Shown here one piece after another: positions 20,531 to 38,419 of a stretch of 64,000 nt of DNA. The first letter of the stretch is position 1, and the number at the start of each line of letters is the position of its first letter. A model generated the notes under the pieces. It was not told where the DNA came from. It worked only from the letters and a program-made list of their open reading frames with translations, and searched no databases. A program made the position numbers and the translations under genes. This DNA comes from an uncultured virus (IMG/VR IMGVR_UViG_3300042145_000066). Its lineage: Duplodnaviria; Heunggongvirae; Uroviricota; Caudoviricetes. Location of the stretch: the IMG/VR virus record IMGVR_UViG_3300042145_000066. One strand, given 5' to 3'.

Positions 20531-22018
20531 CTATTTCCCGTACTGCCAGCCGCTGCCGGTCCCCCGGTACTCCGAGACCGGGATCGGCTGGACGCCCTCC
20601 CGCATCCTCGCGCGGTAGAGCAGTCCGTGCAGGTGGTCGACCTCGTGCATCACGAGCCGGGCCATGCCCCGCTCGAAGATGGTGATCCGCTCGGTGCCGT
20701 CGATGTCGACGTGCTCGACGCTGATCGCCAGCGGTCGGGGGACCTTGCCGCGGACGTCGAAGAAGCTCAGGCAGCCTTCGTACTGCTCGTCCGTCTCGGG
20801 TGACTCTTCGACGATGCGCGGGTTGAACAGGGTGATCAGTTGGCCGTCGGGGGAGCGGACGATGGCGGCGGCCCGGTCGATGCCGATCTGCGTGGCGGCG
20901 ACGCCCATGCCCTTGCCGAAGACGTGCACTTGCGAGGCGCGTTCGGCTGCGGAGACCAGCTCAGCGACCACTCGGCGGGCATCCTCGGCCTCGGTCGGCA
21001 GGTCGAAGGTGCGGGCCGTCTTGGTGAGGATCGGGTCGCCCTCTTGGACGATGCCGACGGCACGCATCCTCTCGCTCGCGGTCGCTTCGGGCTCCAGTAC
21101 CTGCAATGCATCCTCCTGGTTTGGGCGGGTTCGGAACTTCCATTCAAGCCGATAACGGGCATGCAGCGGGGGGTCTTCGGTAGACCAGGAGAAGATGCGC
21201 CGGCCGTCCTCTTCGGTGCGGCGGATCGCGGTGCGGAACGGCATCGCCTCGGCGGTCATGCTCGTCTCGGTGCCCCACGTCACAGGGTCGAGCTCGGCGG
21301 GGAAGTCGAGGCGGACGCTCATGCGTTGCGTCGGTAGGCGTACCGCGCGCTGGAACCAAGATCCCCACTTGTCGTCTCCGACGGTGTAGCTGTACTCCAG
21401 CCAGACGGACTCGCCGGGGTAGAGCGGGTACTGGCCGAAGAGCAGCCACAGCTCCTTGAAGGCGTCCCGGTCGTGTTTCACTCGCCATGTCAACGGCTCG
21501 CCGTCGATCGAGGCACTGAGGCCGATCTCCTCCCACGTCAGCGGATGATCGCGGTAGTGCTGGTTCGACCGCTCGGGGTCTCCCGGGTAGCGGTCCACGG
21601 AGATCCGGATCAGGTAGCGGGTCACCGGGTCGGGGGAGTCGTTGTACAGCCGGCGCCGCTGAGTGGCCCGGTAGCTGTGACCGTCGTAGTGGAGCGTCGT
21701 GTCCTCGTGCTCGACGATCAGGCTCGTCGCATGCGAGTCCTCGCCGTTCGACGCCGGGTGCGCCGTCGGGGCCGGGCGCCCTTGGGATTCCAGCTCCCGG
21801 AACGCGCGGCGCAGTGCCCCGCCAGCGTTCAGGACGTTGTCGGCCTGGTTGGCGAAGGCTGCCGACGGCGTGAGCTGGCCCCCCTCGACCTTCGAGACGT
21901 AGGAGGGCGTGTAGCCGACCTTGCTGGCGAGAGCGGACTGCGAGAGCCCTCGCACGTCGCGCCAGTACTTCAGCTCAGCGATGAACGCCTCGGCTGCTGC
22001 CTGCTGCTGCTCGGGCAT
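20531..22018 (-). CDS. XRE-HTH / beta-rich domain / peptide deformylase fusion
   Basis: N-term LSQSALASKVGYTPSYVSKVEGG; C-term PDF motifs GMGVAATQ, EGCLS, HEVDHLHG. Confidence 0.9.
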   Translation of the reverse strand: MPEQQQAAAEAFIAELKYWRDVRGLSQSALASKVGYTPSYVSKVEGGQLTPSAAFANQADNVLNAGGALRRAFRELESQGRPAPTAHPASNGEDSHATSLIVEHEDTTLHYDGHSYRATQRRRLYNDSPDPVTRYLIRISVDRYPGDPERSNQHYRDHPLTWEEIGLSASIDGEPLTWRVKHDRDAFKELWLLFGQYPLYPGESVWLEYSYTVGDDKWGSWFQRAVRLPTQRMSVRLDFPAELDPVTWGTETSMTAEAMPFRTAIRRTEEDGRRIFSWSTEDPPLHARYRLEWKFRTRPNQEDALQVLEPEATASERMRAVGIVQEGDPILTKTARTFDLPTEAEDARRVVAELVSAAERASQVHVFGKGMGVAATQIGIDRAAAIVRSPDGQLITLFNPRIVEESPETDEQYEGCLSFFDVRGKVPRPLAISVEHVDIDGTERITIFERGMARLVMHEVDHLHGLLYRARMREGVQPIPVSEYRGTGSGWQYGK

Positions 22019-22153: not shown

Positions 22154-22402
22154 TTACGAATCACCGCCTGATGCCTGCTCGCGTGCAGCGTCGATTTCGT
22201 CAGCAATCTTCCGCGCCCACTCCCGGCTGTACGGGGTGTGCTCGGCGATCGCAGTCAGGGGCACGCCGGCCGCTCGCGCATCCGCAACCAGCTCGTCTAG
22301 GCGCTTCCGGCTCGCCTCATGGGCGGCCGTGGCGCGGTCGAGCTTGCGCAGCCATGGCTGTCTGTCGCGGTCATCGAGGAGCTTCTCGGGCCTTCCTGTC
22401 AT
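22154..22402 (-). CDS. Small HTH regulator divergent from transfer operon (Kor-like position)
   Basis: ARAAGVPLTAIAEHTPYSREWARKI. Confidence 0.7.
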   Translation of the reverse strand: MTGRPEKLLDDRDRQPWLRKLDRATAAHEASRKRLDELVADARAAGVPLTAIAEHTPYSREWARKIADEIDAAREQASGGDS

Positions 22403-22424
22403 ACCGCGCATCGTCTCACGGCTG

Positions 22425-22560
22425 GCCGCCAACTGAATAGGCGCCCCGCCTCAAGATTCACTGCCAACTGTGTTGCACTCAGGGCCCGGGTCGTGCACTA
22501 TGGAACTGCCAACAAACTTGGCGGTCCCGCCCGGTGCTCCAACACCGGAACGGGACCTAG
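22425..22560. promoter_or_regulatory. Transfer-operon promoter with operator repeats and leader hairpin
   Basis: GCCAAC x3; GCCAA-N5-TTGGC; TTGCAC-17-CACTAT; hairpin ggtcccg..ccggtgctccaacaccgg..cgggacc. Confidence 0.55.
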
Positions 22561-22590
22561 GTGCGACCCCTGCGAGAGAGGGAATCGACC

Positions 22591-23052
22591 ATGACCACAA
22601 CCGTACCCCAGCCCAACACGGGCACCGTTCACCCCTTCCCGGCGGTCAAGCCGGGCTACCGTCTGGTGCCCGCACTGATCGGCACCCGGAAGAGCGCGCA
22701 CACCGCGTGGATCCCCTGCCCGGCTTGGTGCTCGGGCGGCCACCTCGACGCCCCGACGATGTTCGAGGACATCACGCACACGTCGGCGTCCGAGGACGTG
22801 GGGATCTCCAGCTTCCTCAAGCCGGACGGCTCGCTGCTCATGTACGCAATGCTGCAGGCCGACCCGGCGTCGACGGACGAGCGGCTGCGTCAGGCGCACA
22901 TCGGCATTGAGGCCGGCGACATGCCGGAGTACCACACGCCGGACATGGCGGAGGCGTTCGCCGACGACCTGGAGCGGTTCGCGTCGCAGCTGCGCCGCCT
23001 TGCGGCCACCGCCCGTCTGCACAACGAGCACGCAGCGGCGGTGGCGGCATGA
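22591..23052 (+). CDS. Hypothetical protein (CPxWC..H motif, DUF6907-like)
   Basis: PCPAWCSGGH...DITH; TPDMAEAFADDL. Confidence 0.7.
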   Translation: MTTTVPQPNTGTVHPFPAVKPGYRLVPALIGTRKSAHTAWIPCPAWCSGGHLDAPTMFEDITHTSASEDVGISSFLKPDGSLLMYAMLQADPASTDERLRQAHIGIEAGDMPEYHTPDMAEAFADDLERFASQLRRLAATARLHNEHAAAVAA

Positions 23053-23360
23053 GCACCCCGGTCACCAACCCCGTGATCGCGGAGCAGCACCGTATCGAGC
23101 GCGTCGTCGCCGGCCTCCGGAATGGCGAGTCGACGGTCATCAATGGCACCCCGGTCACCGCGATCAGCCTGTCTGTGGCGGAGGCACTGACCCGCCACGA
23201 GATCGCCTCGCAGCGCACGGCCGAGCTGTCCGGGCTGATGGACTCCCGTGACCTGTCGCCGGCCGAGTTCGGGTCGCTGGAGCTGGCGCAGGACACGATG
23301 CGCCAGGCCCGTGCCACCCTCTCCGCTGCCGGTCACCTGGACCTGATCGGGGCCGCGTGA
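23049..23360 (+). CDS. Hypothetical protein
   Basis: Coupled ATGA/GTGA. Confidence 0.65.
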   Translation: MSTPVTNPVIAEQHRIERVVAGLRNGESTVINGTPVTAISLSVAEALTRHEIASQRTAELSGLMDSRDLSPAEFGSLELAQDTMRQARATLSAAGHLDLIGAA

Positions 23361-23728
23361 TGGCTGACGACCACAGCAAGACGAAGGACGAGCTTCCCCA
23401 GCGTCCTCGTGGCGGGCACCCGTACCGGACGGCTGAGCTTCCGCCGCTGCCGAGGAACACACGTTCCCGCCGCCGCATCCTCCGCGTGCGGGGCTGGCTG
23501 GTCGCTGTGGCTGCCGTTGCTGCGTTCGCCGCGACCGCCTGCCAGCCCGCCCAGGGCCCGGCGGGGAAGGTGATCGACCGGGACAAGACGTACTGGTCGG
23601 CGACGAAGCAGTGGACGTACAGGCTGACCGTCCGCAAGCCCGACGGCGCTGAGGTCGACTTCCGTGTGAAGCGTGCCGTGTACCGGTCCTGCTCCGAGGG
23701 TGCTGCCTACCCGAGGTGTGCTTCGTGA
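23357..23728 (+). CDS. Putative lipoprotein/secreted protein
   Basis: Hydrophobic stretch ending ATAC; YRSC..G.YPRC. Confidence 0.55.
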   Translation: MMADDHSKTKDELPQRPRGGHPYRTAELPPLPRNTRSRRRILRVRGWLVAVAAVAAFAATACQPAQGPAGKVIDRDKTYWSATKQWTYRLTVRKPDGAEVDFRVKRAVYRSCSEGAAYPRCAS

Positions 23729-23914
23729 GCACCGCCGACTACGAACGCCTGCTCCGCAAGCTCCGCGAGACGAACCACCGCAGCGAGCACCCGACCCGCT
23801 GACCCCCAAGCCGCCGCGTCGGCGGAGAAATCCGATCCCCCACGGCACCCGCCGGCGCGGCTCCCACTTCGCACCACCCATCCATCCCGGCATGACCAAC
23901 CGAGGAGATCAGCC

Positions 23915-24142
23915 ATGCCCGAGAACACCACCCCCCAGCCGACCCACCACTACGTCCTCACGCTGCAGATGCAGCAGCGTTCCTCGACGGCCGTCGCGAC
24001 CTTCACCGCGGCCGTGACCCCGCCTGCCGGATGGACCCGGGAGCAGTTCTACAAGGGGCTCTACACGGAACTGACCACGAAGTACGAGCACCTGGCCGGG
24101 GCAAACACACTCTTCTTCGCCCTGGAACCGAACCAGCTCTAA
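23915..24142 (+). CDS. Small conserved mobile-element protein
   Basis: AGGAG RBS; HHYVLTLQ...LFFALEPNQL. Confidence 0.7.
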   Translation: MPENTTPQPTHHYVLTLQMQQRSSTAVATFTAAVTPPAGWTREQFYKGLYTELTTKYEHLAGANTLFFALEPNQL

Positions 24143-24183
24143 GCCTCCACACCCACATCCCACTGCATTCGAAAGGCACCCCC

Positions 24184-24414
24184 ATGTCTCCGTTCCTGTT
24201 CTCTGCCGACTTCGCCGTCACCGAACTCGGCCGCAAGGCCCGCGCCGCTACCACGGTCGCTGAGGTGTCCGTGCTGTCCATCAGCGACTTGTTCGCCGTC
24301 TACGGTGCCGCGGTAGCGAGGGGCGACACGGTGCGGGTGGCGGAGATCCGCCTCGGCGCCGACCCGGAGCTGCTGGCCGCACTCGACGGCTTCGACTACC
24401 CGGCCGCCGCGTGA
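24184..24414 (+). CDS. Small hypothetical protein
   Basis: GAAAGG RBS. Confidence 0.55.
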   Translation: MSPFLFSADFAVTELGRKARAATTVAEVSVLSISDLFAVYGAAVARGDTVRVAEIRLGADPELLAALDGFDYPAAA

Positions 24415-24581
24415 TGGCCGACCGTCAGCCGTCGGTGGATGACGTGGTTGCGGCCGGGGCGTGCGGTAAGTCCCCGGAGCTGATCGCCGCTGTCCGCGCG
24501 TTCTGGTCGGACCCGCAGCGGCAGGCCGAGGCGGCGGCGGCGCGGGAAGACCACCAGGCCCGGCCGACGGCAGCCACCTGA
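24414..24581 (+). CDS. Small hypothetical protein
   Basis: TGATG coupling, followed by hairpin. Confidence 0.45.
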   Translation: MADRQPSVDDVVAAGACGKSPELIAAVRAFWSDPQRQAEAAAAREDHQARPTAAT

Positions 24582-24722
24582 GCCGCCGGGCGGCGGCACA
24601 TTCCCCCAGCCGCCGCCCGGCATCCCTGGCCCTGCCGGAAGCCGCATCGCCTACATCCCCCGGTGCGGCGCCCAGCACGACCAGCACCCACCCCACCAAC
24701 TAACCCGGAAGGACACCCGCCC

Positions 24723-24947
24723 ATGGCACGCAAGGTCCACGTCACCCACATCCAGACCTCCGCCGACCGAGCAGCCGGAAACACCGGCGAGTCCTACAGC
24801 GAACACGTCGCCGCAGCCGACGACCGCCGCCGCAAGGAAGCCGCCGACGCCAAGGAGAAGTCCCGCAGCGACAAGACCTACGGCCTCGCCCTCGACGGCA
24901 GCGGCACCTACACGCCGGCGCCCAGGTGGCCCTGGATCCGCCGCTGA
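24723..24947 (+). CDS. Small hypothetical protein
   Basis: GAAGGA RBS. Confidence 0.6.
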   Translation: MARKVHVTHIQTSADRAAGNTGESYSEHVAAADDRRRKEAADAKEKSRSDKTYGLALDGSGTYTPAPRWPWIRR

Positions 24948-24983
24948 CCGGCTGCCGCCCCGACCATCCCCGAGAGGAATCCG

Positions 24984-25280
24984 ATGCGCCCGTATCTGAT
25001 CACCGCGAAGCCTGGCCGGCTCCATCGTGCCGCCTCCTGGGCTGGCCGGTGGGCGCTGAAGTCCCTCGCCCTGGCCGTGATGGCCGTCCTCGGCACGGTC
25101 GTGCTCGTCGTGCGATGCGCCAGGCCGGTCATCAACTACACCGCAACCCGGGCGGCCTGGCTGGAGCTGTGGGCGGCGTCGGTGACCGGGATCGGCCCGG
25201 TCGGGGCGGCCGTCGGCTCCGGCCTGACCGACGAGTTCATCCGCGAATTCCACAAGGCGCGCACCGGCGCACCCGCCTAG
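24984..25280 (+). CDS. Small membrane protein (Spd-like)
   Basis: GAGGA RBS; TM segment. Confidence 0.65.
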   Translation: MRPYLITAKPGRLHRAASWAGRWALKSLALAVMAVLGTVVLVVRCARPVINYTATRAAWLELWAASVTGIGPVGAAVGSGLTDEFIREFHKARTGAPA

Positions 25281-25293
25281 AGAGGAGCCCGTC

Positions 25294-25563
25294 ATGGGCT
25301 GGCTGACCCCGAAGTACCCGAAGTCTGACACCCCCGGCGCCACCACCCCCGCTCCGGCGCCTAGGCGTGAGCGTCGCGCCACCACACGGCAGCCGGTCGA
25401 TCACAGCAGCATCGGCGAGTCCGACATCCGCGAGTACGAGCGCCGCGGCTGGAAGGTCGAGCGCCGCTCCCGGCACGTCATCGTCGAGCGGACAACCGAG
25501 ACCGGCGGCAGCGAGATGCGGTCCTTCACCGTCCTCGGCAACGGCCGCTACGGGAAGCGGTGA
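25294..25563 (+). CDS. Hypothetical protein
   Basis: GAGGAG RBS. Confidence 0.6.
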   Translation: MGWLTPKYPKSDTPGATTPAPAPRRERRATTRQPVDHSSIGESDIREYERRGWKVERRSRHVIVERTTETGGSEMRSFTVLGNGRYGKR

Positions 25564-25568
25564 CCCGC

Positions 25569-25781
25569 ATGCCGATCACGTTCCGCAAGAGCTTCCGGAT
25601 CCTGCCCGGGGTCCGCTTGAACATCAACCGCAAGTCGTGGTCGATCACGGTCGGGGCTCGCAAGGGGCCGACGTGGACGCGGAGTTCGACCGGCCGCGAC
25701 ACCTTCTCCGCCGATCTCCCCGGCGGCTTCGGCTACCGCACCACCCGCACCCGACGCACCCGACGCAGCCGAGAGGGCTGA
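25569..25781 (+). CDS. DUF4236-like protein
   Basis: FRKSFRILPGVRLNINRKSWSITVG...LPGG.GYR. Confidence 0.75.
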   Translation: MPITFRKSFRILPGVRLNINRKSWSITVGARKGPTWTRSSTGRDTFSADLPGGFGYRTTRTRRTRRSREG

Positions 25782-25783
25782 TC

Positions 25784-25981
25784 ATGCGCTTCCTGTACGA
25801 ACTCTTCGCCGCCTTCCCGGCCCTGGTTGCTGGGCTGACCGTCGGCAACGTCGTCGCTTCCCTGGACGCCCCGTTCCCGTGGCCGCTGCTCGCGGCGCTC
25901 GCCGTGACCCTCGGTGCCGTGTACGTCCTCGACAACCTGATCGACACCCTCGTCGCCCACCGCGCCGCACGCCGCGGCTGA
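25784..25981 (+). CDS. Two-TM small membrane protein
   Basis: GAGGG RBS, hydrophobic. Confidence 0.65.
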   Translation: MRFLYELFAAFPALVAGLTVGNVVASLDAPFPWPLLAALAVTLGAVYVLDNLIDTLVAHRAARRG

Positions 25982-26003
25982 CCCGAAAGGACACCGAACC
26001 GCC

Positions 26004-27383
26004 ATGACCGCCAGCCCGCCGAAGGCCAACGGCAGCACCAGGCCGCGCACGCCCCTGCAGTTCGCGGACTGGCGCATCACGCCCGACCCCGCAGTCGAGG
26101 AACAGGGCAGCCCCCAGCCCGAGCCGGCCACCACGCCGGACCTGATCGCTGAGGCGCAGGCCGAGGCCATCCGCGCACAGGCGTGGGCCGACGCCGAGAA
26201 GGAGCGACTCGCCGCCGAGGCGAAGAAGGAAGCCGACCTCAAGCTCGCCGCCGCCGAGGCTGAGGCGATCCGCGTCAAGGCAGAGGAGGAGGCCCGCAAG
26301 CAGAAGATCGCCAACGACAAGGCTGAGGCCCGCGCCCGCGAGGAGCAGGAGGCACGCGAGACCCGCATCGCCAAGCTCAAGCGTCAGCGCGAAGACGAGG
26401 AGCGCGCCGCCCGCGAGGCTGAGAAGCAGGCCGCTGCCGAGGATCAAGCCGAGGCAGCGAAGGCCGCCGAGGTCGCTGCTGCCGAGGAGCAATGGCGGCA
26501 GTACGCACTGCGGTTCTACGCCGTCTGCTCTGTCGTTGCCCTGCCGGTACAGGTGGCGGCGTTCTACAACCCGAACGCCCTCTGGCTGATGGCCGCTCCG
26601 CTCATGCTCGAAGGCGGTGCGTGGGTCGTCCTTAAGGGCGCTAAGGCTGCTGCAGCGGACCACCGCCCGCATTGGCACTACCGGCTCATCGCCTGGGTGC
26701 TCGCGTTCATCGCCGCGGCCATCAACCTGTGGCACGGCCTCCACGCCTTCGACCCCGCCACCGCGATCGGCACCGCCTTCGCGTCCATTGCCGGCCCCGG
26801 CGTGTACGACCTTCACGAGCACGGCCAGATCCGCAAGCGGGATGGCGTACCCACCCGCCGGGAGCGGAAGGCCGCCGAGAAGGCGGCCAAGGAAGAGGTC
26901 AAGCAGAAGGCGGCCGAGGAGGCGCGGGAGCGCGCCGAGAAGGAGGCCGCAGACGCGGCCGCCGAGGAGGCTCGCAAGACGCTCGCCGAGGACCGACAGC
27001 GAGAGTTCGAGGACGTCTGGTCCGAGGCCGTGAAGATCGCTGCCGCGGTCGGATCGACAACCGACGACAGCGCCGTGTGGGTCCGCGCCTACCGCAACAT
27101 CAAGGGCTGCGACCCGGGCGAGTCGATCGAGTCCATCACCGCCCGCCGGGCCGCCGAGAAGCGCGTCCAAGCAGCCCTCACCGGCACCCCCGTCAACACC
27201 CTCAGCAAGACCAGGTCGTCGCAGGTCGATCAACAAATGCCTGCCCGGCCGCGCCGTGGTCACGCAGGGGGCCCGAAGGTGCGCGGAGTGCGACGTCCGA
27301 ACGACACCCAGCGGTACAGCAGCGGAGCCCGCAACCAGATGGCTGTGGCGGCCAAGAACAGCACGCGTAAGGAGTCGAAGTGA
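26004..27383 (+). CDS. SpdB-like (DUF2637-like) multi-TM coiled-coil spreading protein
   Basis: EAK-rich coiled coils flanking four TM helices, upstream of TraB. Confidence 0.7.
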   Translation: MTASPPKANGSTRPRTPLQFADWRITPDPAVEEQGSPQPEPATTPDLIAEAQAEAIRAQAWADAEKERLAAEAKKEADLKLAAAEAEAIRVKAEEEARKQKIANDKAEARAREEQEARETRIAKLKRQREDEERAAREAEKQAAAEDQAEAAKAAEVAAAEEQWRQYALRFYAVCSVVALPVQVAAFYNPNALWLMAAPLMLEGGAWVVLKGAKAAAADHRPHWHYRLIAWVLAFIAAAINLWHGLHAFDPATAIGTAFASIAGPGVYDLHEHGQIRKRDGVPTRRERKAAEKAAKEEVKQKAAEEARERAEKEAADAAAEEARKTLAEDRQREFEDVWSEAVKIAAAVGSTTDDSAVWVRAYRNIKGCDPGESIESITARRAAEKRVQAALTGTPVNTLSKTRSSQVDQQMPARPRRGHAGGPKVRGVRRPNDTQRYSSGARNQMAVAAKNSTRKESK

Positions 27384-27886
27384 CCGCGTCGGAGATAGGC
27401 GTCACCTATGTGCTCACCCACCCGGATTTCAAGTCCGTGAAGGTCGGCGTCACCACCTACGGCTCGCGCCGACGGCGCGACCTGTGGCGTCGGCAAGGGT
27501 GGCTTCCGTACAAGGAACTTCGGTCCGCATCCAAGCCCCTCGCCGAGACGGTCGAGCAAGGAGTCCTACTCCACCTTCGACACGGGCTCGGCATCCCGAT
27601 CCACCTGACGCCTGACCTCATGGCCGAGGGATGGACCGAGACTGTCAGTGCTCGACTAATGAGTCCCGAGGCGGTCTGGGATCTTGTCTGCCTCGAAGGT
27701 GCTGCACTGCAGTTGAGCCCCTCGGTCGGCACCTTCAAGCCGCTGTCGCATCGACCTCCGAAGCACTACCGACGCACCAAGGGCGACACCCCCAAGTACC
27801 ACCCGATCGCTCGCCTGTTGGCCAGCGAAGAGCGCCGAGTGATGCCCAAGTCGACCAAGAATACCCGCCAGAAGGACCCGTCATGA
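27380..27886 (+). CDS. GIY-YIG/T5orf172-like nuclease
   Basis: TYVL.H....VKVGVT....RR....GW...AETVEQ.VL...GWTETV. Confidence 0.6.
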   Translation: MTASEIGVTYVLTHPDFKSVKVGVTTYGSRRRRDLWRRQGWLPYKELRSASKPLAETVEQGVLLHLRHGLGIPIHLTPDLMAEGWTETVSARLMSPEAVWDLVCLEGAALQLSPSVGTFKPLSHRPPKHYRRTKGDTPKYHPIARLLASEERRVMPKSTKNTRQKDPS

Positions 27887-29886
27887 GCCTCGATCAGCAC
27901 CCCGACTTCCCCGCCGGCTGGGACGACAGCAAGGTGATCCCGGGCGAGCTGTACGTGCCCGACGACCTGTCCGGCGAGGACATCGCGCCCGGCATCGTCG
28001 TCCCCTACGAGCACCGTCCGCCCGTCCTGTCGAGGGCGGGCGGGGCGACCATGGTTGCCGCCGCAGCGACCGGCCGGGCGTGCGGGCTGACCGCCCGCTG
28101 GTTCTTCACCGGCGCCGCCTCCGTGTCCGTCCTCGGCTGGCGGTACATCCGCGCCCACGACCTCCAAGAAGTCCTCGGCGGCATGTCGAAGGGCGCCGAC
28201 TGGAACAAGGTCGACATCGTCCGTAAGCGGCGTTGGAAGTTCCTCGGCTGGGCGGCCGGCGTCACCGCCGGGCTGAACCTGGCCGGCTGGTGGGCGCTCG
28301 TGAAGTACGCGGGCATGACCGCCCTCGACTACTCGTGGATGATCCCGCCCGCCCTCACCGCCACCGTCATCGCCACGGCGGTCACCGCCTACGGCCGCTA
28401 CCGGGCCAACAATCCCGGCCTCGCACCCGAGCAGTTCATCGCCGAGCAGGACGACCCCAACAGTGACGAGCCGTTCCCGTTGGCCCTCGCCCAGACGCCC
28501 GACCGGGTCGAGGAGTGCGTGTCCCGGGCTCTCGCCTACGAAGGCATCGGCACCCGCGCGGTGCGGGCGCTCGGTTTCCACGGCAAGTTCTGGGAGATCG
28601 ACGTCGTCCTCAAGGGCGCAACCCCCGGCAAGGTCAACGCGGTCGCCGACCAGCTGGACGTCCACTTCAACATCAAGCACGGCGGCACCCTCGTCGACCC
28701 CGACCCGATGCAGTCCGCCCACATCGTCATGCGCCTCGTCACCGGCAACCCGTTCGAGGACATGCCCAAGCCCGTCGTCCACGCCCCGAACAGCCTCGAC
28801 ATCTCCGACCCGCACAACTTCGGCCGCTGCATGGACAGCTCGTCGCTCGACCTGGTCCTCGAAGGCCTGCGGATCCTCGTCATCGGCGTATCCGGCGCGG
28901 CCAAGTCCACCGGCGTGCTCCGCGACCTGGCGGAGGTCGTCACCGCCTGCCACAACGCGATCGGCCTCGACCTCGACCCGGTCAAGGACGGGCTTCGCGA
29001 GTTCGACGGCGTCATGGCCACCCCGCCGATCCGCGGCAACAAGGCGTGCGAGGAGTGGCTCGGCTACCTGGTGAAGATGGCCAAGGCCCGCAACACGGTC
29101 CGCAACCGGCTCAACATGGGCGACACCTGGGTCGCCACCCGCGACCATCCGGCGATCTTCCCGTTCGTCGACGAGTTCATCTACCTCAGCCCGGCCGCGA
29201 AGGAGCTCTTCATCGAACTCCTCCGCCTGGCCAAGCAGTCCGGGATCTATCCGGTAGCCGCGGGGCAGGACGCAACCTCGGATGCGATGGGTGATGCGAT
29301 CGCCGACTCGTTCACCCTGCAGATCATGCTGGCTTCCCGGTGGGACGACATCCGCATCGTCTTCGGCCAGGGCGCTGCCGCGAAGGGCTTCCGTCCCGAC
29401 CGGCTGGTGCCCGCCCAGAACAAGGACATCAAGAACGACGCTGGCCAGTCGTACATCAAGGGACCGGGCCTGGACCGGCCGCTGCTGTACGGGTGGAACG
29501 AGCACAGCCGCGACGGCATCAAGCGGGCGGTCGAGGACCGCAAGGCCGCGGGCCGGCCGTGGTTCGACCGGGACACGCTGCAGGCGGCCGGGCTGCTGCA
29601 TCTCATGGACGGCGGCTCGGGGGAGAAGCTCATCCCCGGTGACCGGCAGATCGTCGTCGACGCGATCGAGGTCATGGCTGCGACCGGGGTGGAGCGGATC
29701 CGGCCCGAGCCGCTCGCCGAGGCGCTTGTCGGTCTCAACCCGGAGCTCTACGGCGACCTCACGGCAGCCGAACTGCGGAAGCTCCTCCGGGAGGTCGGAG
29801 TCGGTGCACCAGTGCCGATCGGGGACATCGACGGGCTGAAGAACCCGCGCGGCTACAAGCTCGAAGCCCTGACCGTTTTGACCTAG
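27883..29886 (+). CDS. FtsK/SpoIIIE-family conjugative DNA translocase (TraB-like)
   Basis: N-terminal TMs; Walker A GVSGAAKS; Walker B FVDEF; LLRLAKQSGI..VAAGQ; C-terminal wHTH-like region ending NPRGYK. Confidence 0.8.
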   Translation: MSLDQHPDFPAGWDDSKVIPGELYVPDDLSGEDIAPGIVVPYEHRPPVLSRAGGATMVAAAATGRACGLTARWFFTGAASVSVLGWRYIRAHDLQEVLGGMSKGADWNKVDIVRKRRWKFLGWAAGVTAGLNLAGWWALVKYAGMTALDYSWMIPPALTATVIATAVTAYGRYRANNPGLAPEQFIAEQDDPNSDEPFPLALAQTPDRVEECVSRALAYEGIGTRAVRALGFHGKFWEIDVVLKGATPGKVNAVADQLDVHFNIKHGGTLVDPDPMQSAHIVMRLVTGNPFEDMPKPVVHAPNSLDISDPHNFGRCMDSSSLDLVLEGLRILVIGVSGAAKSTGVLRDLAEVVTACHNAIGLDLDPVKDGLREFDGVMATPPIRGNKACEEWLGYLVKMAKARNTVRNRLNMGDTWVATRDHPAIFPFVDEFIYLSPAAKELFIELLRLAKQSGIYPVAAGQDATSDAMGDAIADSFTLQIMLASRWDDIRIVFGQGAAAKGFRPDRLVPAQNKDIKNDAGQSYIKGPGLDRPLLYGWNEHSRDGIKRAVEDRKAAGRPWFDRDTLQAAGLLHLMDGGSGEKLIPGDRQIVVDAIEVMAATGVERIRPEPLAEALVGLNPELYGDLTAAELRKLLREVGVGAPVPIGDIDGLKNPRGYKLEALTVLT

Positions 29887-29894
29887 AAGGTCCA

Positions 29895-30047
29895 CTGCTC
29901 GCGGGGTGCTCGGCACTGCTCGACCGCAGGTCACAGCTGCTCGACCAGGTGCTCGCCCAACTGCTCGCCGAAATCCCGAGCACCCCGCGAGCAGCTGTCT
30001 GAGCGGCTCTGACCTGCGGTCGAGCACCAGCGAGCACCCACCGAGCA
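29895..30047. repeat. clt-like locus: 6x TGCTCG plus 5x inverted CGAGCA, two interleaved long inverted repeats
   Basis: 19-bp IR 29895-29913/29976-29994; 17-bp IR 29917-29933/30010-30026; immediately after traB stop. Confidence 0.8.
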
Positions 30048-30093
30048 CTTCACAAACCACCATAAACCGATCACCCGCCCGAGGAGCCCGATC

Positions 30094-30867
30094 ATGGCCG
30101 CGAAGACGTCGACCGCCCGCAAGCGGACCACCGCGCGCCGCAAAACCGCCACCCGCGCCCGCCACCCCGCAACCCGCGTCAAAATCCCCCGCCGCGGCCC
30201 ACTCCACGCCCGCCTCAGCAGCTGGCTCGTCCTCCGCGTCATCGTCCCCGCGGTCACCGATCACCGCGACGTCGTCCGCTCCCGCAAGGACGCCGCCATC
30301 CTCCGTGCCACCCACCAGGGCTGCCCCAAGTGCCACGGCAACGGACAGATCTTCACCAAGGGCAAAGACGGATCCTTCACCGGCTCCAAGCCCTGCCCCG
30401 CACCCGCCACCAAACAGAAAGTGTCCCGCTGGGAGATCAACAAAGCCGCCCGCAGCATCGACAAAAACACCGGCCTCATCGGCTGGGCCTGCCCCTGCGG
30501 CAAGAAAGAAAAGCCCCGCTACCGCGACGCCAAACTCGCCACCAAAGCCCTGCGCACCCACGAACGTCAGAAGCACGGCGGCAAGTCCGTCGGCGGCGCC
30601 TGGTACGCCCAGACCACCGACGCCAGCGCGCAGGCCGGCCAGAAGCAGGCCGAGCCCGTGCCGTCCAAAGTAGTCACCGACTCCGGCCTCACCGACGAAC
30701 AGTGGGTCAAAAAGAACAAGAAGATCCACCCCGGCAAAGCCATAGCCCAAGGCAAGTGCTGGATGTGCGCCGGAGAAGGCAAACTCCACGGCGCATTCGG
30801 CGGCGAACAGATCCTCGCCGTCTGCCCCACCTGTACCGGCAACGGCAAAGCCCCGATCGCAGCCTAG
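30094..30867 (+). CDS. Basic protein with DnaJ-type CxxCxGxG zinc fingers
   Basis: CPKCHGNG, CWMCAGEG, CPTCTGNG; WACPCG..HERQKH. Confidence 0.75.
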   Translation: MAAKTSTARKRTTARRKTATRARHPATRVKIPRRGPLHARLSSWLVLRVIVPAVTDHRDVVRSRKDAAILRATHQGCPKCHGNGQIFTKGKDGSFTGSKPCPAPATKQKVSRWEINKAARSIDKNTGLIGWACPCGKKEKPRYRDAKLATKALRTHERQKHGGKSVGGAWYAQTTDASAQAGQKQAEPVPSKVVTDSGLTDEQWVKKNKKIHPGKAIAQGKCWMCAGEGKLHGAFGGEQILAVCPTCTGNGKAPIAA

Positions 30868-30885
30868 AAAGGAACCCAAGCCGCC

Positions 30886-31401
30886 ATGACCATCCTGCCC
30901 GAGCCGCCCGCCGCCCCCGCGGCCGGGCAGGCCCACATCCCGCTCACCGACGCCGTCATCAGCGCCGCCATCGACGACGCCATCGAGAAGGCGAAGAAGC
31001 ACGGCACCACGCCTCAAGTCGTCATCGGCAACACGCCGCCCGCCGCCCAGCCCGACAGCCGGATCGTCCCCCAATGGGCCGTCGGTATCGCCGTCGCCTC
31101 CATCGGCGTCGGTGCCGGAGTCACCGGCCTGGGCTGCGCCGCCTGGCTCGTACTCAAGGGCATGTCCCTGGTGATCCACAGCCTGGAGTCCGTGACCCTG
31201 CTCGGAGTCCTGGCGGTCGCTACCCCGTTCGCCGGGTTCGCCATGACCGCCACCGCCATCGGCTGCCTCATCAGCAAAGCCAAGAAGGCCACCATGCCCG
31301 AGGTCAACAACCACACCTACACCGGCAACGTCTACCAGCAGCACACCGAGACGAACAGCCGCAGCATCTGGAACAAGAACACCAACCAGCCGTACCCGTA
31401 A
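30886..31401 (+). CDS. Spd-like membrane protein
   Basis: AAAGGA RBS; two TM segments, Pro-rich N-terminus. Confidence 0.7.
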   Translation: MTILPEPPAAPAAGQAHIPLTDAVISAAIDDAIEKAKKHGTTPQVVIGNTPPAAQPDSRIVPQWAVGIAVASIGVGAGVTGLGCAAWLVLKGMSLVIHSLESVTLLGVLAVATPFAGFAMTATAIGCLISKAKKATMPEVNNHTYTGNVYQQHTETNSRSIWNKNTNQPYP

Positions 31402-31411
31402 AGGAGACCCC

Positions 31412-31855
31412 GTGCCCGCCGCCACCGACCCGCAGTTACGCGACCACCTCGCCGCGCTCACCGGGCAGATCGCCCGCTGCGACAGCAAGGCCGCCCTGCT
31501 CCTCGCCCTCACCGGCACCAGCCTCGCCGGCGCACTGTCCGTCGCCGCCACCACCCGCCCCGGACCGGCTGTACTCGCCGTCGGCGGCGTCGGCGCCGCA
31601 CTCCTCCTCGCGGCCACCCTGCTGCTCCTCGCCGTCGTCCGCCCCAACCTCGGCGGTCCCGGCTGGCCGCGCTGGCCCGAGATGAACGACGAGCAACTCC
31701 GGGAGGCCCTGGGCGGCGGGCAGCGCCTGGACGAGGCGCGCACCCTTGCCGCGCTCGCCCGCCGCAAGTTCGAACGCGTCCGCACCGCAGTCGACTGCGC
31801 CCGCGCCGGCATCACGCTCCTCGCGACAGCCGCCGCAGTAGCCGTCACCGCATAG
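31412..31855 (+). CDS. Pycsar-effector-like (DUF5706) TM protein
   Basis: IARCDSKAALLL...LLAVVRP.L...LAALARRKF. Confidence 0.75.
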   Translation: MPAATDPQLRDHLAALTGQIARCDSKAALLLALTGTSLAGALSVAATTRPGPAVLAVGGVGAALLLAATLLLLAVVRPNLGGPGWPRWPEMNDEQLREALGGGQRLDEARTLAALARRKFERVRTAVDCARAGITLLATAAAVAVTA

Positions 31856-31895
31856 CCGACACCCCACGACCAACAAGAGAACCGAGGAGAACCCC

Positions 31896-32114
31896 ATGTG
31901 CCAGAGCACACCCACCACCAGCTACGGCTACGAACTGCGCCCCGGCGACGAAGCTGCCCCGGACGACACCCCGGTCTGCTGCGGCGACGACATGACCGGC
32001 AAGGACACCGGTGACGGCTACCGCGACTGGACGTGCGGCGACTGCGGAACCGTCGTCACGGTCGACCAGGAAGCCGAGATGGTCTTCGACAACCGCGAGA
32101 AGCAGCCCGCCTGA
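31896..32114 (+). CDS. Small Zn-ribbon protein
   Basis: GAGGAG RBS; PVCCG...WTCGDCG. Confidence 0.65.
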   Translation: MCQSTPTTSYGYELRPGDEAAPDDTPVCCGDDMTGKDTGDGYRDWTCGDCGTVVTVDQEAEMVFDNREKQPA

Positions 32115-32309
32115 TCAGCCCGCACCGTTAGGCCCCGGCCCACCAGCCGGGGCCTTCGTCGTGGGCACCGCGCGTGCGATCCAGCCCCGGCCTGTGCCCG
32201 CGGTCGGCAGGATCGTCGGCCGCGCACCCAACGCCGCACACAGGCGATCCAACGCATCCTGGCAGGCCTGTTCGGTGTCCGCCCTCACCATGTACGACAG
32301 TTCGCCCAT
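32115..32309 (-). CDS. Small hypothetical protein
   Basis: MGELSYMVRADTEQACQDALDRLC..GRGWIARA. Confidence 0.5.
   Translation of the reverse strand: MGELSYMVRADTEQACQDALDRLCAALGARPTILPTAGTGRGWIARAVPTTKAPAGGPGPNGAG
32130..32156 (+). terminator. Hairpin ending the transfer operon
   Basis: aggccccggc-ccacca-gccggggcctt. Confidence 0.5.
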
Positions 32310-35215: not shown

Positions 35216-35605
35216 ATCGCTGACAACATCACGGACGTCGCCGAGAGTCTGCTGCTGAACTGGCTGCACGGCGTCGGCACACCCACCCGCCCGACGACCC
35301 CGCTCAAGGTCGCTCTGGTCACCGCCAACGGATCCGACAGTGCGGCCGGGACCGAGGTGACCGGCGGCAGCTATGCCCGGCAGGACATCACTCTCACCTC
35401 GTCCACCGGCGGTTCCGGGGTCTCCAACGACGCCGACATCCTGTTCACCGGCATGCCCGCCTGCACGGTCGTCGGCATTGAGATCTACGACTCCGCAGGT
35501 ACGCCCGTCCGGCTCTGGCACGGGGCGCTCGCGTCGAGCAAGACGCTCGCTGCCAACGATGAGTTCAAACTGGCTGCCGGAGACGTCGATCTACTTCTCC
35601 AGTGA
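35216..35605 (+). CDS. Virion structural/fibre-associated protein, copy 1 (probable ATC start)
   Basis: Colinear with 36906..37292 from the first codon; AGGAGG 9 nt upstream of ATC. Confidence 0.75.
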   Translation: MADNITDVAESLLLNWLHGVGTPTRPTTPLKVALVTANGSDSAAGTEVTGGSYARQDITLTSSTGGSGVSNDADILFTGMPACTVVGIEIYDSAGTPVRLWHGALASSKTLAANDEFKLAAGDVDLLLQ

Positions 35606-35616
35606 GGTGAGCCCCG

Positions 35617-36612
35617 GTGCCCACCTTCGGTGAGCTCGTCGACGACTTCGAGGACGACGTCCTCAACGCCACCCTCTGGTCGGGCAGCTATGGCGACCCC
35701 GACGAGGTCGGCGGCCAGGCTCGCATCCCCTGCACCACCGGATACGCCGGGCTGAAGAGCGCGTCGACCTACACGCTCACCGCCAGCCAGCTCGTCATCC
35801 GCCTCCACGCACCCGAACCCGGCGGGGCCACCTCGTCCGCGGCCAGCGTCCTCGTCCTCTCCAGCGTCGGCGGCACCGACGCCGGCTTCATCGTCGACTC
35901 CGCCCAAACCGCGGTCGGCCTCTACTTGCGCGAGGGCTACGCCGACGGTGGCGCCGTCTTCCTCACCTACAGCTCGACGGATCACGCCTGGCTGCGGTTC
36001 CGGGAAGACGCCGGCACCCTCTACTGGGACACGTCCCCGGATGGCATCGACTGGACGAATCAGCGCACCGCCACCACCCCCGCCTGGGCTGCGGACACCA
36101 CGCTCGCCTTCCTCATCGAGGGCCATCGCGACGCCGGCACCAACGACTTCATCCTGGTCGACAGCGTCAACGCGCCGCCCGGACAGACGGTCAGCGGCAC
36201 GGCAAGCCTCACCGCGGACGGCAGTGCGACCGCCGTCGGCACCCTGCGGGCCGTCGGGGCGGCCGACTTCACCGCTACGGGCACGCTCGCCGCGGCAGGC
36301 ATCCGGCGGCAGCTCGGGGCGACGGTCCTCGACGCGACCTCGGCAGCAACGGTGGTCGGCGCGCTGCGGGCCCGCGGCGCAGCAGACTTCGTCGGCGACA
36401 GCATGCTCACCGCGGCAGCCATCAGGCAGGCGACAGGCACAGCAGCAGCCACGGCCAGCGGCGTCCTCGCGGCGGCCGGCGTCCGCACCGCACGAGGCGC
36501 AGCCACCCTGACCGCGTCCGGGACCATGACCGTCGCTGAGGCTGCCATCGACCTCGGTGTCACCGTCGGAGCCCCATCCCTGGCGTGGGAGGTCGGCGCC
36601 CCATGGCTGTGA
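35617..36612 (+). CDS. Virion appendage protein, lectin-like N-domain plus Ala/Thr repeats, copy 1
   Basis: Paralog of 37304..38419 (DHAWLRFRE..LYWDTSPDG.DWTN.RT). Confidence 0.75.
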   Translation: MPTFGELVDDFEDDVLNATLWSGSYGDPDEVGGQARIPCTTGYAGLKSASTYTLTASQLVIRLHAPEPGGATSSAASVLVLSSVGGTDAGFIVDSAQTAVGLYLREGYADGGAVFLTYSSTDHAWLRFREDAGTLYWDTSPDGIDWTNQRTATTPAWAADTTLAFLIEGHRDAGTNDFILVDSVNAPPGQTVSGTASLTADGSATAVGTLRAVGAADFTATGTLAAAGIRRQLGATVLDATSAATVVGALRARGAADFVGDSMLTAAAIRQATGTAAATASGVLAAAGVRTARGAATLTASGTMTVAEAAIDLGVTVGAPSLAWEVGAPWL

Positions 36613-36896
36613 TCCCCGCGTCCAGCACCGAGTACCTGCACGTTCCTGTCACCGCCACCCCCGCCGGTACCGACCTCGACGGCGTCCCCGTAAAGATCGC
36701 CGTAGTCGCCCACCGCACCAACCCCGCCGACAGCGAATGGCGGACCGCCAGCTGGGACAACGGCGCAGCCCGACTCCTCATCGGCCCCGACACCGACACC
36801 GAACTCGCCGCAGGCGACTACCGGGTGTGGATTCACATCGACCCACCCGGCGCCGAAGCCATCGTCCGTAGATCAGGCATCCTCAGCGTCACGTAA
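36603..36896 (+). CDS. Small beta-sandwich virion protein
   Basis: GGGAGG RBS; ARLLIGP..LAAGDYRVW. Confidence 0.7.
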   Translation: MAVIPASSTEYLHVPVTATPAGTDLDGVPVKIAVVAHRTNPADSEWRTASWDNGAARLLIGPDTDTELAAGDYRVWIHIDPPGAEAIVRRSGILSVT

Positions 36897-36905
36897 GGAG
36901 GCCTG

Positions 36906-37292
36906 ATGGCCGACGCATTGACCAACACCGCGGAGAATCTGACGCTCGACTGGGTCCTCGGAGTCGGGACACCGACACGCCCCACAACGCCCCTCCAAGT
37001 CGCCCTGGTCACGGCGAACGGCACCGACACGACCGCGGGCACGGAGGTGACCGGCGGCTCCTACGCCCGCCAGGACCTCACCGTCGCCGCCGCCGTCAAC
37101 GGCGCCACCAGCAACTCAGCGGACCTCGTCTTCGCCGGGATGCCGGCCGCAACGGTGGTCGGGGTGGAGATCTGGGACGACGCCGGCACCCCCGTCCGGC
37201 TCTGGTACGGGGCACTCACCGCATCCAGGACCGTCGCCGCAGGGGACGAGCTTCGACTGACCGCCGGATCCCTGGCCCTGTCCATCGCATAG
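36906..37292 (+). CDS. Virion structural/fibre-associated protein, copy 2
   Basis: AAGGAGG RBS; GTEVTGGSYARQ..N.ADL.F..MPA.TV..VEI.D. Confidence 0.8.
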   Translation: MADALTNTAENLTLDWVLGVGTPTRPTTPLQVALVTANGTDTTAGTEVTGGSYARQDLTVAAAVNGATSNSADLVFAGMPAATVVGVEIWDDAGTPVRLWYGALTASRTVAAGDELRLTAGSLALSIA

Positions 37293-37303
37293 GGGAGGGC
37301 AGT

Positions 37304-38419
37304 ATGCCGTCCCTGTCGACCCTCCAGGACAATTTCAACGACTCGGTGATCGCTCCGGACTGGGGAAACTCCTACGGCGGCGTCTCCGAGTCCGGTGGAA
37401 AGGCTCACGTACCGTGCGGTACGGGCTATGCGGGGTACCAGACCGCCTACTCGTGGACCCTCGCCGGAGCGTCGTTCTTCGTCGCCGTCACCACCGTCCC
37501 CGCCGCATCCACCGCGACCGAGGCCTACGCGTCGGTGTTCGTCAACCACCCGGACATCGCCACGAACGGCACCCGCATCGGATACGTGATCAACACGGTG
37601 AGTGGGCAACTGCGGTGCAAGAACGACGTCGGCTACTTCGACGCCGGGGCAGTCGACCTCACCTACTCGGCCGTCGACCACAAGTTCCTCCGCATCCGCG
37701 AGGACGGCACCAACGTCTACTGGGACACCTCGCCAGACGGCACCACCTGGACCAACCGGCGCACGCTCGCCACCCCCGCCTGGATCACGACCTCCGTCGA
37801 CACCTGCGCCCTCGACCTGTCCGCGCACCGCGACGCCGGCACCCCCGACGAAGCGCAGTACGACCTCGCCAACACCCTCTCCGACGGCGCCGTCTACACC
37901 GCTACAGCCGCCCTCACCGTCGACAGCGCGCTCACCGCCGCCGCGGTCCTGTCCGCAGCCGCCGCATCAGCGCTCACCGCAGACAGCGCCCTCACCGGCG
38001 ACCTAGCCGTGTCCGCGCACGCAGCCGCCAACCTGGCCGCCGACGCCACCCTCATCGCCGACGCCGCCAGCACCGAAATCCCGGAGGTGGCGGAATTGGC
38101 TGCCGGAGACTGGGACCTGCGCATCGAGCAGGGCAGCACGTTCGTCCAGACGTACACCGTCACCGACGCCGGCTTCAGCTGGGCAGGCTGGTCCGCCCGC
38201 GCACAGATCCGGTCCGCGCCCGCCGACTCCGGTGACCTCATGCTCGACCTCACCCCCTACCTGTCGATCATCGGTGCCGCGATCCGTCTCGCCATCCCCG
38301 CCGCCCAGACGGAGACCCTCACCCGCAACGGCGTGTGGGACCTGGAAATGGTGTCTGGCTCCACCGTCGTCCGCCTCCTCAACGGCCGTGCGGTCGTCTC
38401 CCTGGAGGTCACGCGGTGA
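37304..38419 (+). CDS. Virion appendage protein copy 2 with C-terminal BppU-like adaptor domain
   Basis: Paralog N-domain; C-term DLRIEQGSTF..W.ARAQIR..GVWDLE..RLLNG...EVTR. Confidence 0.75.
   Translation: MPSLSTLQDNFNDSVIAPDWGNSYGGVSESGGKAHVPCGTGYAGYQTAYSWTLAGASFFVAVTTVPAASTATEAYASVFVNHPDIATNGTRIGYVINTVSGQLRCKNDVGYFDAGAVDLTYSAVDHKFLRIREDGTNVYWDTSPDGTTWTNRRTLATPAWITTSVDTCALDLSAHRDAGTPDEAQYDLANTLSDGAVYTATAALTVDSALTAAAVLSAAAASALTADSALTGDLAVSAHAAANLAADATLIADAASTEIPEVAELAAGDWDLRIEQGSTFVQTYTVTDAGFSWAGWSARAQIRSAPADSGDLMLDLTPYLSIIGAAIRLAIPAAQTETLTRNGVWDLEMVSGSTVVRLLNGRAVVSLEVTR

Follow-up and report, generated by a model that had tools for sequence, protein, structure and literature searches.

A putative TraB-SpdB2-type DNA transfer cassette in a family of temperate Streptomyces siphophages

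The conjugation locus of plasmid pFP1 was reportedly characterised by Zhang et al. in 2008 (AEM 74:3368), and the plasmid-phages pZL12 and pFP4 are said to have been described by Zhong et al. in 2010 (J Bacteriol 192:3747) and Chen et al. in 2012 (Plasmid 68:170), respectively. Here we analysed a stretch of 64,000 nucleotides, referred to as the window, from a contig of an uncultured tailed virus (Caudoviricetes; IMG/VR IMGVR_UViG_3300042145_000066), in which a cassette at positions 24984–30867 resembles the transfer loci of plasmids: it encodes a TraB-like membrane translocase for double-stranded DNA (dsDNA) and an SpdB2-like membrane protein, and contains a clt-like array of short repeats. 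The tra-spd operon of plasmid pSVH1 comprises TraR, SpdB2, Orf108, TraB and the clt locus, and the available text of its description reports that plasmid TraB performs both primary transfer and spread, and that SpdB2 homologues on actinophages might assist the spread of phage DNA (Thoma et al. 2015, PMC4447253). The plasmid-phages pZL12 and pFP4 are summarised in the accessible parts of two articles (PMC4170104, PMC3583192), the first of which, citing pFP4, describes Streptomyces plasmid-phages as propagating and conjugating as episomes while also forming infective particles.

We consider, with a probability of roughly 0.6, that this locus is a dsDNA transfer or spread cassette of the TraB-SpdB2-clt kind carried by pFP1 and pSVH1, and that temperate Streptomyces siphophages of one family carry it as an integral part of their genomes, maintained by selection. 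The window itself comes from a siphophage or prophage of Streptomyces. Its G+C content, 65–72% per 2-kb bin across the full 64 kb, fits Streptomyces and is the same in the module as in the remainder. Genes were called from G+C at third codon positions (GC3), and the 77 open reading frames (ORFs) were scanned against Pfam (E ≤ 0.01) and PHROG. Early genes for RecT, an exonuclease, a C5 methylase and an HNH nuclease occupy 1–19 kb, followed on the minus strand (19–22 kb) by an antirepressor and a fusion of an XRE-type helix-turn-helix (HTH) domain to a peptide deformylase. The module lies at 22–32 kb, and is followed by DNA-binding and MerR/Xis-like genes, by fibre and tailspike genes at 35–41 kb, and by a late block (TerS, TerL, portal, scaffold, capsid, tail tube, tape measure and minor tail genes) that runs up to the window end. 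The cassette thus sits between the early and late genes, on the same strand as both.

An FtsK/SpoIIIE ATPase had been predicted at 27883–29886 from the DNA sequence, and its coordinates and motifs are right: the plus-strand gene encodes a 667-residue protein with GVSGAAKS at residues 335–342 and FVDEF at 428–432. It matches PHROG 12531 (“FtsK/SpoIIIE-like protein”) with an E-value of 4.8e-70. A direct phmmer search of the sequence against the PDB returned nothing meaningful, and a profile built from 71 members of the family matched FtsK (1.6e-17) as well as EccC and the conjugation coupling protein TcpA. The AlphaFold model (mean predicted local distance difference test score, pLDDT, 84.4) has a confident core at residues 200–570 and a separate C-terminal domain at 586–667. 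Foldseek searches with the model placed FtsK motor chains in all ten top rows (E 9e-16 to 3e-14, template modelling score 0.62–0.69), the best combining E 9e-16 with a score of 0.64. The comparison with pSVH1 TraB that the original prediction had proposed as a check gave an hhalign probability of 99.2 (E 9.6e-20, 405 columns), aligning residues 233–667 of the translocase with 330–765 of TraB; this spans the motor and C-terminal domain and reaches both C-termini. Homology to pSVH1 TraB is detectable at profile level only, and BLASTP relates the translocase to pFP1 Tra, its closest named relative, with 30% identity (E 4e-54). Together, these comparisons support the assignment of the ATPase as a TraB relative. 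Membrane-anchor helices are predicted within residues 56–175 (28048–28407, plus strand), where AlphaFold places helices at 56–89, 104–142 and 150–175; a strict hydropathy cut-off does not flag these N-terminal helices, and the proposed anchor derives from the structural model. A HMMER search of 1.84 billion representative sequences recovered 185 translocase relatives at E ≤ 0.001, a number so small that the clade appears both narrow and divergent.

The C-terminal domain (residues 586–667; 29638–29883, plus strand) is a candidate for recognition of the repeats described below. Modelled alone, it reached a pLDDT of 87.9, and among its best 50 matches by VIA nearly all were winged-helix proteins (Z 5.0–6.2). 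Foldseek returned no match at E ≤ 0.001 for this domain, the best being the winged HTH of Rex (E 0.05). At these modest scores, the models support a winged-helix fold, and the hhalign alignment extends through the same domain of pSVH1 TraB.

The second recognisable component is a 459-residue integral membrane protein encoded at 26004–27383 (plus strand). BLASTP matched it to pSVH1 SpdB2 (E 4e-14, 30% identity over 211 residues) and to the DUF2637 protein of pFP1 (E 2e-15), and tblastn located homologues on 22 Streptomyces plasmids, annotated as SpdB2 or DUF2637 and including the “SpdB2 protein” of pSVH1. The Pfam family DUF2637 did not match the protein at E ≤ 0.01, and searches of the phage collection yielded no match to it. 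It had been foreseen as a four-transmembrane (TM) coiled-coil protein; it proves to be an SpdB2 homologue, for which hydropathy indicates three clear TM segments and a plausible fourth. The TM core covers approximately residues 167–275 and, as judged from the hydropathy scan, has charged Ala/Glu/Lys stretches resembling coiled coils on both sides. SpdB2 itself, according to the available text (PMC4447253), has a coiled coil at its N-terminus and four TM helices.

Gene order in the cassette matches that of the tra-spd loci of pSVH1 and pFP1. The window has small membrane genes, the SpdB2-like gene, a 168-residue insert, the TraB-like gene, the repeats and a gene for a 257-residue protein. On pSVH1 the order is a minus-strand GntR gene, small genes, SpdB2, orf108, TraB, repeats (clt) and the next gene; on pFP1 it is a minus-strand GntR gene, small genes, DUF2637, Tra, repeats and a gene for a 258-residue protein.

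Just past the translocase stop codon, where a repeat locus had been predicted, lies a clt-like array of 152 bp (29896–30047) made up of six TGCTCG copies followed by five copies of the reverse complement CGAGCA. These 11 copies, out of 105 in the window, form its densest 6-mer cluster, the runner-up having eight. The longer word CTGCTCG occurs 49 times across the window against 21.6 expected, with no strand bias by count of the listed rows, an excess that codon usage may explain. Within the array is an inner inverted pair, CCGCAGGTCA / TGACCTGCGG, at 29918–29930 and 30008–30020. As a shared cis element, an inverted pair CCGCAGGTCA / TGACCTGCG is conserved in the phage cassette array and in that of pFP1, and one copy of TGACCTGCG is present in the clt region of pSVH1, after its GACCCGGA repeats; outside the window, sites of this element lie at about 27700–27820 of L002 and at 8283–8292 of L016.

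We collected 15 related loci, six from genomes and nine from IMG/VR; one (L023) duplicates another (L005), leaving 14 distinct. In the 14 closer related loci the repeat copies stand at identical offsets from the translocase stop codon, and the repeat word varies by class: TGCTCG in eight loci (window included), TGCTCA in six, CCCTCG in L024 and CGTCTA in L025. To relate the word to the protein, we compared seven TGCTCG with six TGCTCA loci; L023, being a duplicate, and L024 and L025, each the sole member of its class, were excluded. For residues 586–667 of the translocase, identity was 76.9% within a class and 61.2% between classes, and in an exact relabelling test only 1 of 1716 labelings reached the observed difference. 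For residues 1–200, 200–400 and 400–585, and for both halves of the 257-residue protein encoded beyond the array, identities within and between classes were equal to within one point, and the relabelling counts for all these segments ranged from 253 to 1284 of 1716; the class difference was −0.2 for residues 1–90 of the 257-residue protein (814/1716) and 0.4 for residues 91–257 (562/1716). Since the gene across the array shows no class shift, physical linkage alone does not explain the co-variation. The two singletons also differ: L024 has NPNGY where every other locus has NPRGY, and the C-terminal domain of L025 is 28% identical to that of the window. By sequence comparison, the repeat word and the C-terminal domain of the translocase appear coupled, a coupling that is distinct from proof of binding. 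The array is positionally conserved and clt-like, making it a candidate recognition site for the C-terminal domain.

The survey of relatives, another of the proposed checks, found the cassette at the same position in all 15 related loci, ahead of phage late genes and with intact ORFs. Three core genes are present in 15/15 loci: the translocase, the 257-residue protein, and a 98-residue single-TM protein (24984–25280, plus strand; hydrophobic segment at residues 28–46) that is found there at 44–90% identity. The SpdB2-like gene is present in 14/15; in L006 a 481-residue ORF stands in its place. Terminase, portal or tail-fibre genes lie downstream in eight loci: fibre and tailspike genes in L003, L006, L017 and L024, and terminase in L004, L007, L008 and L020, the last with portal and scaffold genes also. 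The translocase ORF is intact in 16/16 loci (window included), at 663–681 residues, and its ratio of non-synonymous to synonymous substitution rates (dN/dS) has a median of 0.34 (105 pairs, 15 sequences). Intact ORFs and this dN/dS of about 0.34 support the view that the module is integral to the phage family and under purifying selection.

Chromosomes of Streptomyces tuirus, strain cg28 and NBC_01590 carry the cassette. In S. tuirus the relative is a prophage of about 82 kb, flanked at either end by host genes; it is collinear with window positions 6–64 kb and its portal is 92% identical. Its single tyrosine integrase lies past the lysis gene, at a distance of about 6 kb from the tail genes. 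In its border zones we found no shared word of 14 bases or longer and no tRNA genes. Its early region (L013:14197–15447) holds an insertion-sequence-type transposase (rve core plus HTH) and a SocA/Panacea antitoxin-like gene, neither of which is present in the window, and its tape measure ORF is 1187 residues by gene call, shorter than the 1903 residues in the window.

If the cassette operates as its plasmid counterparts do, it would act once the prophage has excised and begun to replicate. The membrane-anchored translocase would, by analogy with TraB, assemble as a ring, with its C-terminal winged-helix domains docking on the array of about 11 short repeats that follows the translocase gene. 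Its FtsK-type motor could then pump phage dsDNA across membranes, working with the SpdB2-like protein as a pore former and with the small membrane proteins. Phage DNA would thereby enter neighbouring hyphal compartments or contacting hyphae, and there either replicate lytically or integrate. Ring assembly, ATP-driven pumping, the timing of expression, movement of phage DNA from cell to cell and transfer independent of virions are all steps that we infer from the resemblance to plasmid systems. The sequence is compatible with movement inside a single mycelium, from one mycelium to another, or both.

Several observations weigh against this reading. The Pfam family FtsK_SpoIIIE (PF01580) does not match the translocase at E ≤ 0.01, nor does any NCBIfam model, and among 32 relatives and comparators tested with PF01580, 11 reached sub-threshold matches only. 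A PF01580 match at gathering score is the criterion used in AICE (actinomycete integrative and conjugative element) surveys, for example PMC3218068; the clade escapes it, so such elements are probably under-counted. The closest isolated phage, Streptomyces phage Kromp, whose structural genes are 70.7% identical to those of the window at the DNA level, is without all four core genes. The phage therefore does not need the cassette, which is better seen as an exchangeable phage module. The window covers all except about 17 kb of an 81,007-bp contig, and the co-variation, which points to coupling of repeat word and C-terminal domain, comes from a small sample of 13 related sequences. The Walker A motif is also unusual. 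In GVSGAAKS (28885–28908, plus strand), motif comparison with homologues shows that Ala replaces the near-universal P-loop Gly before the Lys, a position at which the PROSITE P-loop pattern needs Gly. The translocase does not fit the canonical GxxGxGK[ST] form, whereas Gly-Lys is kept by the Tra proteins of pFP1, pSVH1 and pFP4. In 113 of 120 close homologues (the other seven did not match the search pattern) and in 15/16 loci the motif has the form G-x-S-G-[AS]-A-K-[ST]; among 100 distant relatives, 63 did not match the search pattern, and of the 37 that did, 32 have Gly-Lys. The Ala P-loop is thus fixed across the prophage clade, and ATP binding could be altered or lost. K341, R403, D430 and E431 are invariant in 87 sequences, from which we think that the ATPase probably works.

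Control genes of the plasmid type are a further gap in the window. Its sole candidate regulator, a 92-residue ORF at 22154–22432 on the minus strand, is doubtful: the GC3 coding score is weak, the match to phrog_686 (“HTH DNA binding protein”) is marginal at 8.8e-4, and none of the 15 related loci has a homologue. The divergent HTH regulator of the original prediction is therefore weak and not conserved, and the same holds for its candidate operators, of which three occurrences of a CTGCCAAC-like word at 22423–22512 may be examples. Neither a GntR-type TraR nor a NUDIX gene was found among the 77 window ORFs. In the relatives, a regulator with GntR and UTRA domains lies upstream of the cassette in L024 and L025 (2 of 8 loci scanned), and minus-strand NUDIX genes resembling pSAM2 Pif lie upstream in L005, L007, L018, L019, L020 and S. 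tuirus (L013:10028–10522); one or the other is found in seven of the eight loci scanned, plus S. tuirus. KorSA (a GntR protein) and Pif (a Nudix protein) act in the control of AICE transfer, according to the available text of PMC2440964, and by analogy the upstream GntR and NUDIX genes of the relatives can be regarded as AICE hallmarks.

Given the plasmid-like character of these genes, we asked how other explanations account for them. An independent AICE or integrated plasmid, inserted as a passenger, would explain the homology to plasmid and AICE transfer genes and the lack of the cassette in Kromp, yet no integrase, Rep or ParA is found in or near 22–33 kb or elsewhere among the 77 window ORFs by Pfam, no direct repeat longer than 12 bp flanks the module, and the G+C content is that of the window. 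The module accordingly lacks the full set of own integrase, replication gene, Tra and att bounds by which an AICE is defined, and its missing integrase, Rep and flanking repeats speak against a nested AICE. The cassette also holds the same position in 15/15 relatives, including phages with a terminase just 32% identical, and the S. tuirus prophage has its single integrase at its end. A nested AICE is consequently very unlikely, and the free-standing element with flanking att sites and integrase that would have undone the original prediction was not found in the window. That prediction had noted the lack of integrase, Rep and att repeats; none indeed belongs to the module, and the lack of an integrase as such is an effect of the window edge, explained by the position of the S. 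tuirus integrase about 6 kb past the tail genes. A translocase that serves the prophage or host in cis, either clearing or segregating DNA at sporulation septa in the manner of SpoIIIE or SffA, or mobilising the host chromosome from the clt site in Hfr-like fashion, would suit the FtsK/SpoIIIE motor fold and the chromosomal residence in S. tuirus, cg28 and NBC_01590. We regard it as improbable, because the recognition words gather at a single clt-like site beside the gene instead of being distributed as polar guide motifs, because an SpdB2 partner and the plasmid gene order are present, and because specificity switching among phages fits self-recognition by a mobile element.

Hardly more probable is a translocase that is catalytically crippled, leaving the cassette as a device for DNA anchoring, exclusion or defence against plasmids or phages, or leaving another protein, such as the 257-residue zinc-ribbon protein, to bind the repeats. 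The deviant P-loop fixed in the clade and the presence of this basic protein beside the array in 15/15 loci speak for it; against it, the invariant K341, D430, E431 and R403 and the dN/dS of about 0.34 argue for a working ATPase, the 257-residue protein does not co-vary with repeat class, and no PADLOC model matches the core genes. The septal or mobilising role and the crippled-ATPase role are possible, and both fit a clustered, self-specific repeat site less well. The strongest competitor, although still unlikely, is a narrower form of our reading, in which the cassette acts inside one mycelium during lytic growth, moving replicating phage DNA across cross-walls to adjacent compartments and enlarging the infected zone with no transfer between mycelia. 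Co-orientation with, and position between, the early and late genes suggest expression in the lytic phase, Streptomyces phages of about 120–135 kb carry a solitary homologue of the translocase, and the role in phage DNA spread suggested for SpdB2 homologues in the available text of PMC4447253 points the same way. Plasmid TraB, however, does primary transfer and spread alike according to that text, so that sequence cannot separate the two roles, and some relatives have Pif-like NUDIX and GntR genes of the kind tied to donor-recipient control in AICEs. Overall, the original prediction is confirmed as an observation and partly supported in its interpretation: the TraB relative and the phage-borne module are supported, the HTH regulator with operators is weak, and the missing integrase is overstated.

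More tentatively, the transfer cassette could define a widespread group of chromosomally integrating “conjugative prophages”, which once induced would pump dsDNA from hypha to hypha by means of TraB and SpdB2, giving a virion-free, receptor-independent mode of spread. Such a group would be marked by the Ala P-loop and by at least four classes of exchangeable winged HTH plus repeat, serving as “address labels” that bar cross-mobilisation among co-resident phages and plasmids; the prophage translocase family comprises at least 120 protein clusters at 90% identity. We hold this wider picture with distinctly less confidence than the reading of the cassette itself. If the cassette works, the phage could spread by a second route, independent of receptor, virion and lysis, and, if true, this would change views of phage host range and resistance, and of gene flow, among antibiotic producers that grow as mycelia. 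Between the TGCTCG and TGCTCA classes, each copy is changed by a single base while its position stays fixed, which makes them a clean natural system in which to study recognition of loading sites by TraB-type proteins.

The remaining genes of the module are less conserved or lack recognisable families. The 257-residue core protein (30094–30867, plus strand) has an Arg/Lys-rich basic N-terminus and CxxCxGxG motifs of zinc-ribbon type, with a sub-threshold match to Pfam DnaJ_CXXCXGXG; it weakly matches the 258-residue protein encoded at the equivalent position past the pFP1 repeats (E 2e-4), and the ESM Atlas gave one unnamed cluster only. NCBIfam returned nothing for the core genes. Upstream of the SpdB2-like gene, a two-TM protein of about 65 residues (25784–25981, plus strand), whose start was inferred as an internal ATG of frame 25367–25981, has hydrophobic segments and tblastn matches in 10/15 loci. 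A 168-residue ORF at 27380–27886 (plus strand), between the SpdB2-like and TraB-like genes, has no Pfam or PHROG family match and occurs in 1/15 loci, placing it outside the conserved cassette; in most loci the SpdB2-like ORF abuts the translocase start, and the 168-residue ORF looks like a recent insertion. The small membrane proteins that had been predicted in the module are present, as is a PycTM-family gene, by Pfam and hydropathy. Two of them are accessory genes beyond the cassette: a 171-residue membrane protein (30886–31401, plus strand; phrog_19266, 5e-11) with hydrophobic segments, in 5/15 loci, and a small PycTM-family membrane protein (31412–31855, plus strand; Pfam PycTM 8.6e-11, PADLOC PycTM 1.1e-9), in 2/15. 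The latter, which has the TM domain of Pycsar-like effectors, stands alone with no cyclase nearby; in L007 (6292–6738) and L008 a PycTM homologue lies upstream of the cassette instead. The first co-oriented gene of the module, also accessory, encodes a DUF6907 protein (22561–23052, plus strand; Pfam 9e-27) with tblastn homologues in 4/15 loci, and adjoins the GntR regulator in L024 and L025.

Elsewhere in the window we noted further features. The gene at 20531–22018, which lies directly ahead of the module and runs on the opposite strand, encodes a 495-residue protein that joins an N-terminal XRE-type HTH to a peptide deformylase domain at the C-terminus (Pfam 2.6e-31), a domain combination unusual for a repressor. 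A tRNA-Trp call at 21759–21848, lying antisense within this gene, was taken as a false positive. A scan of 19.9–34.6 kb for sigma-70 promoters and terminators found no promoters and four terminator-like sites, fewer than expected from shuffling, and such a scan is uninformative for Streptomyces. The fibre and tailspike set at 35357–41382, comprising two Gp80-like fibre genes, two phrog_14065 paralogues and a 1015-residue tailspike of pectate-lyase fold, is located upstream of the terminase genes and separate from the main tail block. The 1903-residue tape measure protein (54590–60301) contains an intein, with Pfam Intein_splicing at residues 1395–1731 and a LAGLIDADG_3 homing-endonuclease domain at 1585–1642. 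In the early region, a repeat-rich patch at 9400–9560 lies inside an ORF (8873–9961, 362 residues) with no Pfam family; it includes CTCCCGAA-like copies at 9459–9495, then a run of G, and a perfect 8-bp tandem repeat of GAGCAAGG (5.4 copies) at 9512–9554. The patch may represent an iteron-bearing origin embedded in the gene of a replication initiator.

Among described systems, pFP1 (NC_006912.1), a theta-type plasmid, is one of the closest to the window. Both have a DUF2637/SpdB2-like gene upstream of tra, an array right past the stop codon with forward then reverse copies around the inner pair CCGCAGGTCA...TGACCTGCG, and a basic zinc-ribbon gene after the array (258 residues in pFP1). Unlike the window, pFP1 is devoid of phage genes and, as a plasmid, encodes a MobF relaxase, ParA and integrases. 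Its Tra carries an FtsK-gamma domain at the N-terminus and the canonical P-loop GGPGSGKS, its repeats are built on the word CTCTAC, and its divergent regulator is of the GntR type. The 12.6-kb rolling-circle plasmid pSVH1 (NC_007431.1) shares the colinear tra-spd order, a homologous SpdB2, short repeats directly after traB and TGACCTGCG; it differs in a remote TraB with a GEPGAGKS P-loop, an 8-bp GACCCGGA word and a GntR-type TraR. A different kind of relative is represented by Streptomyces phages of about 120–135 kb (Evy, Jay2Jay, Coruscant, Naboo and others; 89 records), which carry a translocase homologue of the same PHROG 12531 with 33–38% identity across the TM and motor regions. In these phages, unlike the window, the gene is solitary among tRNA genes (Evy gene 106), has a canonical P-loop, and is accompanied by no SpdB2-like gene, nor by any repeat cluster within 13 kb. 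Publications on isolated Streptomyces phages go no further than to mention that FtsK-like genes are present.

The plasmid-phage pFP4 (NC_017833.1) resembles the window in combining phage structural genes and a plasmid-type transfer locus on one replicon, its record listing TerS, TerL, portal, capsid and tape measure together with GntR, DUF2637, FtsK/SpoIIIE and tyrosine integrase genes. It differs in having the plasmid functions ParA and a primase-polymerase, neither of which is found among the 77 ORFs of the 64 kb analysed. Its Tra is barely similar to the translocase (BLASTP E 0.024), and its DUF2637 protein gave no BLAST match. Unlike the plasmid-phage pFP4, the S. tuirus relative is chromosomally integrated. 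The concept of a dual-route phage is already in print for pZL12 and pFP4, and these experimental precedents limit the surprise of the present case; the literature searched contained no description of an integrated prophage family with a TraB-type cassette. The element is thus the chromosomally integrating form of a Streptomyces phage with a plasmid-type transfer locus, and what it adds to the known systems is a TraB lineage that evades PF01580, a deviant P-loop across the clade, and a repeat word and winged-helix domain that change together.

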